Source: Syntrophales bacterium
Lineage (GTDB): Bacteria; Desulfobacterota; Syntrophia; Syntrophales; PHBD01
DNA length: 64,000 bases
Reading direction: 5' to 3'
Assembly (NCBI GenBank): GCA_963668175.1
Contig: OY764159.1
Coordinates: forward strand, 928,001 to 992,000
Translations under genes and position numbers: made by a program
Notes under the pieces: generated by a model
Told to the model about the DNA's origin: nothing
Database searches by the model: none
The model's input: only the letters and a program-made list of their open reading frames with translations
Part shown: piece after piece, positions 23,352 through 33,548 of the stretch
Numbering within the stretch: position 1 is the first letter of the stretch
How the letters are laid out: each line of letters opens with the position of its first letter

Positions 23352-24125
23352 TTAGTCCAGGATATTCGCCTTCATGAATGTCTTCTGCAGCGCATCCAGC
23401 GCATCGTATTTCGTCAAGTCGGACTGAATCGGCGTAATCGTGATCAAACCTTTTTTCAAAGCGTAGGCGTCGGAATCTTCATCTTCGCGATCGGCCAACT
23501 GGGTTTCGCCGGCAAGCCAGTAGTAAACGTTATCCCTTGGATCCATTCGCTTGTCGAAATTTTCGACCAGCCTTGCCTTGCCCTGTTTTACGACGGCTAT
23601 GCCCCTGATTTTATCGGGGGGAACAGCCGGTATGTTGACATTCAGGGCCAAAGGGCTCAACACGGGGTTCTTTGTAATGAAGAGGGCGATTTTCCGGGCG
23701 ATCCGGGCGGCAAAGGTGAAGTCCGCTTCCCGGTGGGTGTCGAGCGATACGGCCAGGGACGGCACGCCGAGAATAACGGCTTCCGTGGCGGCCGATACGG
23801 TTCCTGAATAGATGACATTGATGCCGACATTCGCCCCTCGGTTGATACCCGATACGACGAGATCGACGGAATTTTCCGTAAGCTCGTTGATTCCTATTTT
23901 GACGCAATCGGCGGGTGTGCCTGCGACCGAGTACCCGAAAAAATGTCCGTTCTTCCTGACGCGTTTGACCATGAGCGGCCGGGATATGGTAATGGCATGT
24001 CCTACGGCGCTCTGTTCGATTTCCGGAGCGACGACCAGACAGTCGGCTTCATGGCTTAGCTCGTCGTACAGGGCGCTCAATCCCCGGGCATGGACGCCGT
24101 CGTCGTTAGTGAGAAGAAAGTTCAT
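23352..24125 (-). CDS. surE: 5'/3'-nucleotidase SurE
   Basis: [29 protein letters not shown]. Confidence 0.97.
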
Positions 24126-28211: not shown

Positions 28212-28796
28212 CTACTTGCCGTCCGGTCTCTGGAACAGCTTGAAATCGATCATTTCGCAGATCACGTGGCCCACCGTGATATGGACTTCCTGGATACGCG
28301 GCGTATTGGTCGACGGCACAACAAGAGAATAATCCACAATCTTGGCCACGTCTCCGCCGTCCTTTCCCGTCAGGCCGATGGTCGTCATCTCCATCTTTTT
28401 CGCCATTTCCATGGCCTTGACAATGTTAGGCGACTTGCCGCTCGTACTCATTCCCCAGGCCACATCGCCCGGATGGCCGATCGCCCGTATCTGTTTGCTG
28501 AAAATTTCAGCATAGTCGTAATCGTTGGCGATACTTGTAATGACGGATGTATCGGTCGTCAAGGCAATCGCAGGGAGCGGCGGCCTTTCAATAACGAACC
28601 TGTTGACGAATTCCGCCGCCAGGTGTTGGGCATCCGCCGCGCTGCCGCCGTTCCCGAAAATCAGAATCTTGTTTCCGGCATTCAGGGCGTTGATAATGGC
28701 ATGAATGACTGTGATAATTCTCCCGAGATTTTCGTTGACGAAGGCGTCTTTAAGCCTCGCACTCTCTTTGAACGTCCTGACGATATGATCTTCCAT
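28212..28796 (-). CDS. gmhA: Phosphoheptose isomerase
   Basis: GNGGSAADAQH, NDY, FSKQ, STSG.S, RIQEVH; likely start ATG 28796. Confidence 0.95.
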   Translation of the reverse strand: MEDHIVRTFKESARLKDAFVNENLGRIITVIHAIINALNAGNKILIFGNGGSAADAQHLAAEFVNRFVIERPPLPAIALTTDTSVITSIANDYDYAEIFSKQIRAIGHPGDVAWGMSTSGKSPNIVKAMEMAKKMEMTTIGLTGKDGGDVAKIVDYSLVVPSTNTPRIQEVHITVGHVICEMIDFKLFQRPDGK

Positions 28797-28826
28797 CAAT
28801 GCCACACAATGTTCTAATTTTGCGAT

Positions 28827-28855
28827 AATATATTTATCGTACCCAGTCATGTCAA
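28827..28855 (-). promoter_or_regulatory. Putative sigma70 promoter for gmhA-grpE-dnaK
   Basis: TTGACA-N17-TATATT on the minus strand. Confidence 0.6.
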
Positions 28856-29006
28856 GGGCAGGTGGGCATTATAATTTTCCCAGACCGGGAACGTATTGAC
28901 GGATGGCGGTTTCCACTACCGGGACGGGCTGATGGAATGATTATGCCGGTGATAAAGAGTGAATACGCAGGCATTTTGAGGTTTTGCATGTGGATACATT
29001 CCGGAA

Positions 29007-31064
29007 CTAGATGAAAAATAATTCATTCCGGTTGCGATCCTTCAATTCCGCAAGCTTTCCCTTGTTCCAGTCGGAAATGCGGCTGTAATATTGCGTGATT
29101 CGGGCAACACCGTCGACGTCCTCCGATCCGCAATGCAGGCAGGCGTCCGTAAGGCCCCGGGATGTTTGGCCGCAATGGAAACATACGGTGAATTCCGGCG
29201 AGAAAGCGAGCTGCCGGCTTTTCGTGTCCCGGAAAGCCCCGACAACCAACGCGATGAGTTTTGCCGGAGATACGGAGCGGCTTCCCAGGGAGATGAGCGT
29301 AATGGGACCGTCGCCGATCAGGGGATGGAAGGAACCCTCCCTGGCGATGCGGGCGGGGGGATCGACAGCCGCCGCTACGTCCAGGTGGGTTGAATTGCTG
29401 TAAAAGATCTCTCCCCGGCCTACGTTTCCCCTTACGTGACGGCCTGCCTCCGGAGAAAAGTACTTCAGATCGAGCCTGGCAAAACGATGCGACGTCGTCT
29501 CCGCGTGGGATTGTCCCAGGACGAATCTCATCCCGTGCCTTTCGCTCAAATCCTCGGCTTTCCGGAGCATATGCTCGATCACTTTCAGCCCGAAAGCATG
29601 TGCTTCCTCGGATTGATGTAAGGGCTTTCCCGTCATGATTCCGGCAAGTTCGTTCAGCCCTACCATACCGAAAAGGGAGACCGTCCGTTCCATACGGAAA
29701 TAAGGGTGTCCGTCCTTGTCCATCGTCATGAGCGACAGGGGCCCCTGCCCGCCGTACGAGAGGAGTCTTTCGATGAAATCCTTTTTCTGTACGTGGGCCT
29801 TGGCGGCCAGATCCATGATGTCGTCGAGCAGATTGAAAACGCTGCCTTGCCCCCTCTTCTCGCGGTAACCGAGCCTGGGGAGGTTGATCGTCACGTTGTG
29901 CAGGACGAAGGATCGCTCGGTCCAAGGAGTAGAGCGTTCCGGGCTTGCCGGCCGCTTTTCCTCCCGGCGATTCTTGCCCGAAGCAGCCGAGTCGTCGCGG
30001 TCGAAGATAAAGCAGGTATTTCCTTTTTCGGCGGCTACGGTGCCTGTTTGTTCCAGGAAAGCCTCGTGGCCCTCCGACTCGAAGAATTTTCCGGAGATAT
30101 GGACGATAGGACGCGGGAAGACGAAAGGCCTGCCCGATCCGTCGCCTTCCAGGAACACCGAAAAGATGGCTTCTGCGAACTTCCGGGCCTCGGTTTGATA
30201 ATCTCCGTAAACAAGGCCGGTCAAAACGCCGCCGGGACCGACGGCGGGAGACCCGGTAAGACCGTCGGGGATATCCCAGTAAAGATGGATGTCGGTGAAC
30301 ATCGCCTGCCCGCCCCGCGACGCGGTCAACTGGGAAAATTCGTAAATCAGCAGTTGGGCGATCTGGCGGATGTCGCCGTCGGAGAGTCCTCTCAAGTAGG
30401 GTGCGAATGAAATATTGACGGCGTCCCAGGCGATTACTCCGGCGAAATGGGCCTGAAGAACGGCGCCGAACCGCACCATGTGGGCGATCAACACCTCGGC
30501 ATGCCTCGCAGGCTTCGCTCCGGTTAGGGAATGAGGCAGGTTCAAGCCGAACTTCTTCAAATATTCGAGCGACTGGAAGGCGCTGTACGGCCTGTCGATA
30601 TAGCCGAGGCCGTGGAGATGAAAATCGCCGGCCGTGTGTGCATCCCCGACGTCCTGGGAAAAGACGTCGCGGAGGGCGTATTCTTTCTTGATGCCTTCGG
30701 CGAGGATGAGGTTCGTCCCCTCCGGACCGTGGGGCACGTTGGCATTTTCGCGGTTGCGGTGAAGGATCAACTGCCTCGTATCGTAAAGGGGAAAACCCAG
30801 CCGGGCATGCATTTTACCGGCCTTATCCAGGCCCCGCTCGATAAGTCTCGCATCAACCAGTTCCCGGATGAGGGCCGTCGTCAGCGTGCCGATGCCGGAC
30901 GCCATGATCTGCTTTTCAACCTCCCGGCTGATGGCTTGGGCCGTTTCGACGTCGATGTCCGTCTCCCGCATGAGGGCATCGACAATACGCTGCCGATTCC
31001 ATCCTGCCAGCTCCTCGCCCGATGTCCGGACAAATAGGGTTATATCGGTCGTTTCTTCCACCAT
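29007..31064 (-). CDS. nrdD: Class III (anaerobic) ribonucleotide reductase NrdD paralogue, catalytic residues degenerate
   Basis: N-terminal ATP-cone, ENANVPH, SRGGQ, F.FP, NLPR, CxxC-CxxC Zn ribbon, WNKGK.AE.KDR tail; but RITQY instead of RITGY and both catalytic Cys missing. Confidence 0.85.
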   Translation of the reverse strand: MVEETTDITLFVRTSGEELAGWNRQRIVDALMRETDIDVETAQAISREVEKQIMASGIGTLTTALIRELVDARLIERGLDKAGKMHARLGFPLYDTRQLILHRNRENANVPHGPEGTNLILAEGIKKEYALRDVFSQDVGDAHTAGDFHLHGLGYIDRPYSAFQSLEYLKKFGLNLPHSLTGAKPARHAEVLIAHMVRFGAVLQAHFAGVIAWDAVNISFAPYLRGLSDGDIRQIAQLLIYEFSQLTASRGGQAMFTDIHLYWDIPDGLTGSPAVGPGGVLTGLVYGDYQTEARKFAEAIFSVFLEGDGSGRPFVFPRPIVHISGKFFESEGHEAFLEQTGTVAAEKGNTCFIFDRDDSAASGKNRREEKRPASPERSTPWTERSFVLHNVTINLPRLGYREKRGQGSVFNLLDDIMDLAAKAHVQKKDFIERLLSYGGQGPLSLMTMDKDGHPYFRMERTVSLFGMVGLNELAGIMTGKPLHQSEEAHAFGLKVIEHMLRKAEDLSERHGMRFVLGQSHAETTSHRFARLDLKYFSPEAGRHVRGNVGRGEIFYSNSTHLDVAAAVDPPARIAREGSFHPLIGDGPITLISLGSRSVSPAKLIALVVGAFRDTKSRQLAFSPEFTVCFHCGQTSRGLTDACLHCGSEDVDGVARITQYYSRISDWNKGKLAELKDRNRNELFFI

Positions 31065-31147
31065 CTCCCGTCCTTTGCTTCCCTCAATTGCGACATGCTT
31101 TATAATATAAGGACGAAAAGATCAAATAGGGAAAGGCATTTCCCTTC

Positions 31148-31176
31148 TTGACAGACCCCCATGGTTAACCTATATT
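31148..31176 (+). promoter_or_regulatory. Putative sigma70 promoter for the SPFH operon
   Basis: TTGACA-N17-TATATT. Confidence 0.6.
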
Positions 31177-31216
31177 GCCATACAATGTCATAACATTGGG
31201 AGGTTCAGGTGCAGGC

Positions 31217-32341
31217 ATGGGAATGAACAATACCGTATTTCTTGAGGTTATCGAGTGGTTTGATCAGACAGGGCAGGAAATGGTCCACCGGATTCCCGAA
31301 GAGGGGTCCGGGGAAATAAAATGGGGAGCCCAGTTAACCGTCCGGGAGAGCCAGGCGGCCGTCTTCTTTTATAACGGCAAGGCTTACGACGCCATCGGTC
31401 CCGGAAGGCATACCCTGAAAACCGCGAACATCCCCTTGATCACGAAAATCCTGAGCATCCCCTGGGGCATGACGAGTCCGCTCCGGGCGGAGGTCTATTT
31501 CACCAATATGAAGGTCTTTCCCAACCTCAAGTGGGGAACCAGGGACCCGGTCGCCTTCCGGGACAAGGAGCTCGGCGTCATACGTCTGCGGGCCTTTGGA
31601 ATATTCAATATCGCCATCGTCCAGCCCGTCCTTCTCATCAACAGCCTGGTCGGAACCCAGGGCGTTTTTAAGACCGCGGATATCGAAGAGTATTTGAACC
31701 GGGTCATCGTTTCCCGTTTCAACGACTTCATGGGGGAGCATGTCGATACGATCTTCAACCTCCCGTCCAAATACGAAGAGATGTCTGCGGGCCTCAAAGC
31801 GGCCCTCAAGGACGACCTGAGCCATTTCGGCCTGGCTTTGACGGACCTGTATATCAATTCCATTACGCCTCCCCCCGAAGTACAGAAAGCCATCGACGAC
31901 AAGAGCAAACTGGGCATGTTCGACGATCTCAATAAGTTGCTCAAAATGAAAGCGGCCATGGCCCTGGAGACCGCCGCCCAGGCGCAGAATACGGCCGGGG
32001 CGGGAGTGGGCATGGGCATGGGATTCATGATGCCCGCCATGTTTGCCGATGCCTTCCGGGCAGATCAGGCTCAGGCCCCGGGAACGCCGGCTCCCGTACA
32101 ATGCACGGAGTGCCGGCAGGAGATTCCGGCGGATGCCAGATTCTGTCCCTACTGCGGTCATCAGCAAGTCATCATTCAGAGGTGTGAGCATTGCGGCAAG
32201 AATCTGACCGCCAATGCCAAGTTCTGCCCTCGATGCGGGCAGGCAACCGATCGCAAGCCGGAAGCGAAGAAGTGTCCTCATTGCGGTACGGACAACCTTT
32301 TCAATTCGATATTCTGTAATCAGTGCGGTGAACGGATCTAA
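31217..32341 (+). CDS. SPFH/Band-7-like protein (YdjI-like) with C-terminal zinc ribbons
   Basis: QLTVRESQ.AVF, GPGRHTL.T.NIP, KWGT..P, LRAFG, GAGVGMGMG; six CxxC pairs at the C-terminus. Confidence 0.88.
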   Translation: MGMNNTVFLEVIEWFDQTGQEMVHRIPEEGSGEIKWGAQLTVRESQAAVFFYNGKAYDAIGPGRHTLKTANIPLITKILSIPWGMTSPLRAEVYFTNMKVFPNLKWGTRDPVAFRDKELGVIRLRAFGIFNIAIVQPVLLINSLVGTQGVFKTADIEEYLNRVIVSRFNDFMGEHVDTIFNLPSKYEEMSAGLKAALKDDLSHFGLALTDLYINSITPPPEVQKAIDDKSKLGMFDDLNKLLKMKAAMALETAAQAQNTAGAGVGMGMGFMMPAMFADAFRADQAQAPGTPAPVQCTECRQEIPADARFCPYCGHQQVIIQRCEHCGKNLTANAKFCPRCGQATDRKPEAKKCPHCGTDNLFNSIFCNQCGERI

Positions 32342-33548
32342 CTGGCAAGTCGAACATCAGTGCCCTCAATGCGGCGCCCCTGTTGTCCTGGACGAGACGT
32401 TCCGGATACTGTCCTGCCCCTACTGCCGGACGAGGCTCTACATCGAGCCCGGCGACCATTTCCGGCATTGCATTCCTTCACGCGTCTCCGCCGGAGAGAT
32501 GATCAACCTGCCGTACTGGCGGTGCAAGGGATCATGCTTCTCTTTCCGGGGCTTCGAAGCCAATCACCGTTTCCTCGATGCCAATCTGAGCGGCCTGGCC
32601 GTGCCGGGAGTCCCGGAATCGCTCGGGTTGAGGCCCCAGGCCTTGCGGATGAAATTCGTATCTCCAGAACTGCCGGGGCAGTTCCTGCCACCCCGGTTGA
32701 CGCTGCCGCAAATCATGGCCAGGATCACCGAAACCCACGTGCCGGGCGGTTCCTTTTATAGATTTATCGGCGAACTCACAAGCCTTGTCTATTCGCCCTT
32801 CTACCGGAAACAGAATGTCCTCTACGACGCCGTGACCGACAGGCCGGCCTTAAACATCTCGCCCTCCGCGGACGAATGGCTGAAAGAGACCGCGGGGGCA
32901 AACACCTGGCGAGTACGGTTCGTTTCGACCCTGTGTCCACAGTGCGGCTGGGATCTGGAAGGCGACAGGGACGCCCTCGTCCTGATTTGCCGTAACTGCA
33001 ACAGGGCCTGGCGATGCGAGGAAGGAGAGTTGAAAGAGCTGGCGTTCGCCGCCGTTGAGCATCCCCAGGCCGTTCTGTATCTGCCGTTCTGGCGACTTCG
33101 GGTCCGTATGGACGGTATCGATCTCGACAGTTATGCCGATCTGATCCGGGTTGCGAACCTGCCCAAGGCCGTTACACCCGCCTCCGAACGGAAACCCTTC
33201 TTCTATTGGCTGCCCGCATTCAAGGTGAATCCACAGCTGTACTTGCGAACAGCAAGACAGATGACCATCTATCAGCCGGAAGGGGACATGACCGCAACCT
33301 TTTCGGCCGGCCCTCGCCATCCGGTGAACCTTGCCGAGTCGGAAGCCCTGGAGGGAGTGGCGGTCGTTACGGCGGAAATCGCCACGGACAAACGCCGTCT
33401 CCTGCCGGTTCTGGCGAAAGCCAAAGCCGTGAAGGAGGACAGCCTTCTCATCTATCATCCTTTTGTCATGAAATATAACGAGCTCGTTCACGCATACACC
33501 GGGATGGCCATGGACCGGAACGCCCTGGCTTTCGGAGCTGCGCTTTAG
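32328..33548 (+). CDS. Hypothetical protein with two zinc-ribbon modules
   Basis: GTG start overlapping the SPFH stop; CPQCG..CPYC..LPYWR and CPQCG..CRNC..LPFWR. Confidence 0.75.
   Translation: MNGSNWQVEHQCPQCGAPVVLDETFRILSCPYCRTRLYIEPGDHFRHCIPSRVSAGEMINLPYWRCKGSCFSFRGFEANHRFLDANLSGLAVPGVPESLGLRPQALRMKFVSPELPGQFLPPRLTLPQIMARITETHVPGGSFYRFIGELTSLVYSPFYRKQNVLYDAVTDRPALNISPSADEWLKETAGANTWRVRFVSTLCPQCGWDLEGDRDALVLICRNCNRAWRCEEGELKELAFAAVEHPQAVLYLPFWRLRVRMDGIDLDSYADLIRVANLPKAVTPASERKPFFYWLPAFKVNPQLYLRTARQMTIYQPEGDMTATFSAGPRHPVNLAESEALEGVAVVTAEIATDKRRLLPVLAKAKAVKEDSLLIYHPFVMKYNELVHAYTGMAMDRNALAFGAAL

Follow-up and report, generated by a model that had tools for sequence, protein, structure and literature searches.

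How does a gene for an anaerobic ribonucleotide reductase come to be retained once the residues that carry the radical chemistry have been replaced? The question is raised by a locus within a 64,000-nucleotide stretch of a Syntrophales bacterium genome (GenBank assembly GCA_963668175.1, contig OY764159.1, positions 928,001 to 992,000), referred to here as the window. Positions 29007..31064 of its minus strand encode a 685-amino acid paralogue of NrdD, the class III ribonucleotide reductase (RNR), in which the radical glycine is missing; the protein is called pNrdD below, and residue numbers refer to it. A preliminary description of the locus had suggested an intact but catalytically dead enzyme maintained by selection. 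Judged from its sequence, the gene is not a working glycyl-radical RNR, and the comparisons presented below support the view that it is a selected pseudoenzyme descended from the ECCR-type nrdD-nrdG operon that is resident in the phylum.

The open reading frame (ORF) is uninterrupted, and the Pfam NRDD profile matches residues 106-678 of its product with 394 bits, in keeping with the full-length NrdD-like protein of the preliminary description; the NCBIfam equivalog TIGR02487 is narrowly missed, at 324.9 bits against a curated cut-off of 326.35. The zinc ribbon and the WNKGK tail reported at the same time can both be read in the translation. The ribbon cysteines C628, C631, C642 and C645 (29130..29183, minus strand, as are all the features of pNrdD) are invariant in the 118 non-Gly and 20 Gly-type proteins compared below, and together with C351 they make up all the cysteines of the protein, as read by eye from the translation. 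In an AlphaFold2 model built on a 27-sequence alignment (mean predicted local distance difference test score, pLDDT, 74.8; predicted template-modelling score, pTM, 0.76), the 10-stranded barrel fold is present, the N-terminal domain has a four-helix topology, and class III RNRs alone appear among the top structural matches, with template-modelling (TM) scores of 0.55-0.71. Confidence in the model is low at residues 1-21, 87-130 (linker and flap), 358-377 (finger loop, with a pLDDT of <50) and 656-665 (the loop that bears the glutamine discussed next).

At the glycyl-radical position the protein reads RITQY, which does not satisfy the radical-glycine motif R-[IV]-x-G-[YF]. The residue concerned, Gln658 (codon CAA, 29091..29093), is aligned with the radical glycine in the RITGY motif of the P. 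copri NrdD and, in the phage T4 NrdD, with position G580A. The second loss is that of the beta-A catalytic cysteine, whose role in NrdD is the delivery of reducing equivalents. Here RPYC has become RPYS, and Ser161 (codon AGC, 30582..30584) is aligned with the cysteine of the PYC motif in the T. maritima NrdD, in the canonical NrdD of the same genome and in all 20 Gly-type orthologues. The finger loop (residues 356-384, 29913..29999) is degenerate and is without its thiyl-radical cysteine, there being no cysteine of any kind in this segment, and the triphosphate-binding HxHD motif survives as the remnant HxHG (residues 149-152, 30609..30620). The first three of these changes had been read from the DNA in the preliminary description, and the alignments agree with it in each case; they show no shifted residues that might have stood in for the catalytic ones, a possibility that it had itself raised. 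It had also allowed that sequencing reads might contradict the substitutions. Positions 28900-31200 show zero differences from contigs assembled from four public runs of one sample, which is probably the assembly's own source, and therefore this agreement provides no independent support and argues only against an assembly slip. The contigs of two of the runs, X3 and X4, are split at 30444-30576, a few bases from the Ser161 codon, where a 133-base piece lies between two longer contigs with all bases matching; this split could reflect a strain variant in the sample or a bubble in the assembly graph.

The losses are not peculiar to the window. The 120 best matches to pNrdD in a search of 5.8 billion proteins are full length and 59-94% identical to it, and when pNrdD itself is included the glycine is missing in 118 of the 121 proteins; the search for RITQY-type orthologues that had been called for thus uncovers a clade that is not Gly/Cys-intact. 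The exceptions are three matches (P0101, P0108 and P0118) that keep the glycine, the beta-A cysteine and a loop cysteine. Within the 118 non-Gly proteins the radical site is occupied by Gln in 111, Arg in four, Leu in two and His in one, and the beta-A position by Ser in 99, Ala in nine, Gly in five, Asn in four and Arg in one, with cysteine in none; at the position of the HxHD aspartate, Gly is found in 95, Ser in 14, Ala in six and Asp in two. For comparison, 20 families that belong to the phylum but not to the order supplied one Gly-type locus each (L098-L117). All 20 have RITGY with nrdG directly downstream, as well as the HxHD aspartate, and although a motif search recovered RPYC and ISECCRL in 19 each (missing L105 and L102, respectively), the alignment columns hold cysteine in all 20 at both sites, the finger-loop ECCR cysteines falling at win365/366. 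The finger loop is the most variable segment of the non-Gly clade (column entropy 2.56 versus 0.5 in the Gly-type proteins), and in this region at least one cysteine is found in 83 of the 118 proteins and none in 35, pNrdD being among the latter. Of the 93 columns that are at least 88% conserved among 17 diverse Gly-type NrdDs, 85 were found to keep the majority residue in the non-Gly proteins and eight to have changed, the changes falling on the radical glycine, the beta-A cysteine, the finger-loop Ser/Cys/Arg, the active-site glutamate (win595), Y351 and two lysines. The 20 nearest Gly-type orthologues give the same picture, with the loss of the HxHD aspartate in addition. Loss is concentrated at catalytic positions while the remainder of the protein is conserved.

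The clade is also old and widespread within one bacterial order. A relative is encoded at 310 loci in GTDB species genomes, and the best 80 of these, which form the locus set used here, belong to Syntrophales, Syntrophaceae, Syntrophus or unclassified 'Deltaproteobacteria' metagenome-assembled genomes (MAGs); their radical site reads Gln in 61, Arg in two, His in one and Gly in one (L082), the C-terminus of the other 15 lying off the contig. In a sample of 151 Syntrophales genomes, relatives occur in 146 at E <= 1e-10 and the copy of this lineage in 137 at E <= 1e-100 (as tallied from the table), and the order-wide matches span 24 families and 62 genera. Two trees, both obtained by quick searches, recover the non-Gly proteins as a single clade: 28 of 61 rows under LG+G4, with a support of 100 in the Shimodaira-Hasegawa-like approximate likelihood ratio test (SH-aLRT), and 20 of 41 rows under LG+C20 with posterior mean site frequencies (PMSF), with a support of 100 and a single change of state. 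P0101, P0108, P0118 and a copy from genome G061, all of the Gly type and from the order itself, make up the small sister group of this clade (support 98-100), and the two together are nested among the Gly-type NrdDs of the phylum's other orders. In a sample of 301 genomes from the phylum, 125 match at E <= 1e-120, the matches listed being 50-69% identical.

Some members of the wider family deserve separate mention. The copy in G061 (locus L092, contig C43) is of the Gly type, with MITGYY and RPYC, and occupies the place next to gmhA-grpE-dnaK with no nrdG beside it; in its genome, which is 96% complete, no NrdG orthologue, other NRDD gene or class I or II RNR was found, so that the choice lies between an intermediate stage and a gap in the binning. 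There is, moreover, a second, long-branch group of NrdD-like proteins without the radical glycine (P0141, P0145, P0150, P0166, P0144, P0159 and P0175/P0182/P0187), in which the site reads Glu, Asn or Asp when the tails are aligned by eye, and some of these proteins stop before the zinc ribbon and bear about 150 extra N-terminal residues. A further set of long relatives (P0125-P0137 and others, 1030-1700 amino acids) is of the Gly type and 44-51% identical to pNrdD, which is matched in two to three separate stretches, and these proteins look like active NrdDs with intein insertions.

Selection on the gene was assessed by the Nei-Gojobori method (NG86) with 62 coding sequences, namely that of the window and those of 61 loci, one of which (L082) is of the Gly type. 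For the 407 pairs with dS of 0.1-1.5 the median dN/dS is 0.16 (range 0.07-0.34), far from the value near 1 that the preliminary description had named as a sign of ordinary decay. When omega is pooled by region over 97 non-independent pairs, with L082 excluded, it is lowest in the NxN flap and linker (0.037), followed by the cone-like domain (0.064) and the N-terminal half of the barrel (0.092), and it is higher in the zinc-ribbon and loop domain (0.21) and in the finger loop (0.34). Elsewhere in the order, full-length dead copies among the matches listed share 46-68% identity with pNrdD, compared with 76-85% for the canonical NrdD; the dead copy therefore evolves faster than the canonical enzyme, yet is clearly constrained. 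Occasional copies do contain in-frame stop codons (one TAG in G135, two TGA in G432). It is the absence of the glycine from 118 of 121 proteins, the order-wide presence, the low dN/dS and the focusing of losses on the catalytic residues that together argue for a pseudoenzyme kept by selection, and to this extent the inference drawn at the outset stands. What would be expected of a pseudoenzyme is found here: essential residues have been lost, purifying selection is accompanied by long retention, and a working RNR is present elsewhere in the genome.

What has been kept is as informative as what has been lost. The NxN flap motif of pNrdD (N-R-E-N-A-N, residues 104-109, 30738..30755) corresponds to a segment that, in the accessible part of PMC11226230, is described as covering the substrate in active NrdD, and the same part of that source lists the NxN flap, HxHD, a loop ending in Glu581, and Tyr712 among the substrate-contact or network elements of the P. 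copri enzyme. In all 118 non-Gly proteins N109, H149, H151, A521, E522 and Y659 are kept, as is N107 in 92; the cone-like domain, NxN flap, HxH, (T/P)AE loop, YTNS and zinc ribbon persist throughout the clade, and the sequence of the Gly-loop domain around Gln658 is well conserved. The N-terminal domain (residues 4-100, 30765..31055) calls for some qualification. An ATP-cone had been reported there, but the match to Pfam PF03477 is weak, its score (20.3 bits) not reaching the cut-off of 25.8, and the beta-hairpin, which in ATP-cones bears a basic K-R pair, reads VRTSGE, with VRTS in place of VKKRDG. The Gly-type locus L082 has the same score, the Gly-type parents share the non-canonical hairpin motif, and the column entropy of the domain is lower in the non-Gly clade than in the Gly-type orthologues. 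Constraint has also been gained: N260H, K198R, K318R and A247T are fixed in all 118 proteins, Q246L in 115 and Y351C in 105, at sites where the 20 Gly-type orthologues invariably have another residue. This pattern fits a ligand-recognition and allosteric scaffold that has been retained and has come under constraints of its own.

If pNrdD is inactive, one would ask which enzyme supplies deoxynucleotides and whether an activase is still at hand. The genome of the window contains a canonical nrdD-nrdG pair, the presence of which the preliminary description had proposed to check, together with a class II RNR and nrdR. Its canonical NrdD (P0122; SMCCRL, RVVGY, with an adjoining radical-SAM gene) belongs to another type of NrdD, the MCCR type, and is only about 29% identical to pNrdD. 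The MCCR type occurs in 66 of the 301 genomes of the phylum sample. Outside the order the two types nearly exclude one another, as 117 genomes have the ECCR type, 59 the MCCR type and a single one (G396) both; inside the order both types are found in about 120 of 151 genomes. No activase adjoins the window gene, as had been noted, its downstream neighbours being a gmhA-like SIS gene, grpE and dnaK; none was found downstream on the same strand in the 79 loci other than L082 of the best 80 of 310, and no NrdG match was found in 12 further loci of the order (L086-L097). The canonical NrdD is absent, at E <= 1e-100, from 21 of the 151 order genomes, and in five of these, which are 94-100% complete (G019, G039, G057, G126 and G141), the Gln-type copy is the only NRDD-family match. 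No NrdG orthologue was found in these five, the best match (E 1.5e-8) being a case of generic radical-SAM likeness. A class II RNR is matched in four of the five, that of G057 in fragments, one of which has an in-frame TGA. As class II RNR is present in just 69 of the 151 order genomes, the dead copy does not track it. Retention of the dead copy alongside the canonical NrdD only, a class II RNR only, or both argues against an obligate NrdG decoy, a heterodimer with NrdD and a class II accessory; the decoy and the heterodimer with active NrdD, which had been among the earlier candidates, are disfavoured by the five genomes that have neither canonical NrdD nor NrdG.

A history that would account for these observations can be proposed. 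The ancestor of the order would have held, besides the resident ECCR-type operon, a second, canonical nrdD-nrdG of the MCCR type, and the presence of the latter would have made the old copy redundant for catalysis. The old copy would then have lost its adjacent activase gene, after which one lineage would have lost the radical glycine (to Gln), the beta-A cysteine (to Ser), the HxHD aspartate, the active-site glutamate and the constraint on the finger loop, while the barrel, zinc ribbon, Gly-loop domain, substrate flap, phosphate-binding loops and cone-like domain were retained under purifying selection and N260H, K198R, K318R, A247T, Q246L and Y351C became fixed. The resulting protein may bind nucleotides at the former substrate sites, the former allosteric sites or both and serve, without catalysis of its own, as a sensor, a buffer or a regulatory subunit, in a role independent of NrdG and of active NrdD. 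That pNrdD serves as a nucleotide-binding sensor or regulatory subunit is a proposal in which we would place about equal measures of belief and doubt. The broader suggestion, which we put forward more tentatively and with doubt slightly the stronger, is that of an ancient, order-wide pseudo-NrdD that arose from the resident anaerobic reductase and became a sensor or regulatory subunit without catalysis, with newly fixed residues of its own and independent of NrdG and of the active RNRs; it would be one case of a wider and hitherto undescribed practice among microbes of reusing dead class III RNRs to sense the (deoxy)nucleoside triphosphate, or (d)NTP, pool.

Several observations weigh against this proposal. 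In the structure model, confidence is low for the flap (87-130) as well as for the Gln loop (656-665). Loss of the HxHD aspartate from 116 of the 118 non-Gly proteins could weaken or alter the binding of NTPs. The cone-like domain falls under the Pfam threshold for an ATP-cone, although this was already so in the active parents. The synteny with gmhA, grpE and dnaK, part of which is ancestral, does not point clearly to a function, and no partner, output domain or informative fusion was found. Lastly, in G126 (locus L090; 100% complete, 6% contamination) there was no match to any other RNR (canonical NrdD or PF02867) of any class, and an NrdG orthologue was likewise not found. This is probably a binning gap, as class II RNR is present in other genomes of the genus, yet it is the single observation that would fit a still-active enzyme. 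With regard to fusions, long frames of 891-1203 amino acids at some orthologues were considered and rejected; their upstream part is an Arg/Pro/Gly-rich read-through, and a methionine stands immediately before the conserved N-terminus.

The neighbourhood of the gene is conserved to a considerable degree. The gene is followed on its own strand by a gmhA-type SIS gene (28212-28850), for which TIGR00441 scores 211.4 bits with a cut-off of 209.45, and then by grpE and dnaK. Within the locus set SIS follows in 60 of the 80 loci, GrpE in 56 and DnaK in 53, many of the misses being due to contig ends, and the same order is seen in 10 of 12 further loci of the order. A near-consensus promoter of the sigma-70 type (TTGACA-17-TATATT, 28855-28827, minus strand) is located ahead of gmhA and overlaps its first listed start codon; translation probably begins at an ATG further downstream, given that the NCBIfam match covers nothing before residue 19. 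Outside the order gmhA already follows nrdG in two of the 20 Gly-type loci, which, with the promoter before gmhA, indicates that the linkage is partly inherited and need not imply a common function. Upstream and divergent are a SPFH/Band-7 gene with C-terminal double zinc ribbons (31175-32341, plus strand), a gene that has this upstream place at 38 of the 80 loci, often about 1.6 kb away from the dead NrdD, and a 444-amino acid ORF (32214-33548, plus strand) with weak Trm112-like and zinc-ribbon matches. Five genes downstream of pNrdD is surE (23352-24125, minus strand), a member of the 5'/3'-nucleotidase family that recurs in 38 of the 80 loci and is the sole nucleotide-metabolism gene of the conserved neighbourhood. 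One family departs from this arrangement: at L043, L052 and L075 (and likewise in G046, G118, G027, G005 and G063) the dead copy is convergent to the canonical nrdD-nrdG at a distance of about 2-4 kb and is not beside gmhA-grpE-dnaK.

The main rival to the sensor reading is that a new, non-radical catalytic activity has arisen in the old barrel, with N260H, Y351C, K198R, K318R, A247T, Q246L and G658Q forming an active or metal site and with a nucleotide or another phosphorylated compound as the ligand. The fixation of the replacements in 105-118 of the 118 proteins, at sites that differ in all 20 Gly-type orthologues, would agree with this, since constraint has been gained and not just lost, and the gains include one histidine and one cysteine. 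However, C351, at the start of strand beta-E, precedes the former thiyl cysteine by 14 residues and would probably lie off the pocket, and no co-located pathway genes were found in the neighbourhood; we regard a new activity as unlikely. It might also be argued that pNrdD serves the active class III system in an accessory capacity, either as a heterodimer partner of the canonical NrdD or as a decoy or regulator of NrdG. About 120 of 151 order genomes carry both copies, the canonical nrdD-nrdG is found in convergent orientation no more than about 2-4 kb away in three of the 80 loci (L043, L052, L075), and the Gly-loop domain is well conserved in sequence, all of which would suit such a role, were it not for the five nearly or fully complete genomes in which the Gln-type copy is the only NRDD gene and no NrdG orthologue was found, and for the low identity between the two proteins (about 29%). 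An accessory role seems to us decidedly unlikely, and we would rate equally low a structural or proteostasis role, unrelated to nucleotides, that might be read from the order pNrdD-gmhA-grpE-dnaK. The recurrence of SIS, grpE and dnaK speaks for the latter, as do failures to find HrcA in the genome and a CIRCE element in the window, but the gene order is partly inherited, a near-consensus promoter separates pNrdD from gmhA, and the residues that have been retained are those of nucleotide-contact motifs.

More exotic is the idea that pNrdD is still a radical enzyme, with an alpha-carbon radical on a residue other than glycine. According to the accessible part of PMC11528403, stable radicals can reside on Ala, Ser or Thr where these replace the glycine of PFL-type enzymes, and such a precedent, together with the conserved loop around Gln658 and the one MAG (G126) with no match to any other RNR, might seem to favour it. 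Against this, Gln, Arg, Leu and His are not among the substitutions reported in that part of the source, the activase is not adjacent and some genomes are without any NrdG orthologue, and the beta-A cysteine is gone from all 118 proteins and the loop cysteine from 35, pNrdD included. With the activase and the cysteines missing, a radical on Gln of this sort is very improbable. Least credible of all, to the point of being nearly negligible, is an ordinary decaying pseudogene that is still open by chance: the rare in-frame stops of G135 and G432 would be in its favour, while full-length open frames in well over 100 genomes from 24 families, an omega of 0.16 and the fixation of new residues stand against it.

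The distinction is of some practical consequence. In databases these proteins carry the name anaerobic ribonucleoside-triphosphate reductase, and as a result metabolic reconstructions of Syntrophales credit these organisms with an enzyme that the gene almost certainly does not provide; where pNrdD is the sole NRDD-family gene, an anaerobic supply of dNTPs would be wrongly inferred. For work on RNRs and glycyl-radical enzymes, the clade would amount to a natural experiment in which the nucleotide-recognition parts of NrdD have been separated from the catalytic ones, the allosteric and substrate-recognition scaffold having been kept and the Gly, Cys and Glu discarded, and it would offer a bacterial, class III counterpart to the few dead RNR subunits that are known. 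Its ligand and partner could reveal a new form of nucleotide-pool sensing in strict anaerobes.

How, then, does pNrdD compare with known systems? Yeast Rnr4 and cytomegalovirus M45/UL45 are catalytically dead homologues of RNR subunits that have other roles. Like these, pNrdD is derived from an RNR and is kept without reductase chemistry; unlike it, they descend from class I subunits and occur in eukaryotes and viruses. A class III or bacterial counterpart of the dead subunits was not found in the literature searched, nor was a published description of a Gly-less NrdD from Syntrophales found in the literature on class III RNRs and glycyl radical enzymes. There is no mention of one in the accessible text of PMC3543383, PMC4390871, PMC9531940, PMC9669993, 10.1101/2022.04.23.489257 and PMC13450708, their supplements being outside the search, and a search of the ESM Atlas with the window protein returned ordinary NrdD clusters only. 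With the aminoacyl radical enzymes, as presented in the accessible part of PMC11528403, pNrdD has in common that it is a glycyl-radical-enzyme homologue whose radical site bears a conserved residue other than Gly. Those enzymes, however, are of the PFL type and keep the cognate activase and the thiyl cysteine, whereas pNrdD has Gln at the site, no activase and no catalytic cysteine, and hence does not qualify as one of them; NrdD itself appears in that part of the source only as an outgroup. The solved NrdD structures of P. copri (8p23, 8p2s), S. thermophilus (9d3x), T. maritima (4coi, 4u3e) and phage T4 (1h78) share the fold of pNrdD, with a Foldseek probability of 1.00 and sequence-profile E-values of 4e-35 to 1e-19, although these are only 16-20% identical and have the radical glycine (Ala in the T4 crystals) and the catalytic cysteines. 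The closest likeness is to the ECCR-type NrdDs of other families (L098-L117), which are 54-58% identical over the full length. RITGY, RPYC, ISECCR, HxHD, the glutamate of the GE motif and a downstream nrdG (20/20) are features of the ECCR type that are all missing from the window protein, but the two share the cone-like N-terminus, the NxN flap, HxH, the (T/P)AE loop, YTNS, the zinc ribbon and the WNKGK tail.

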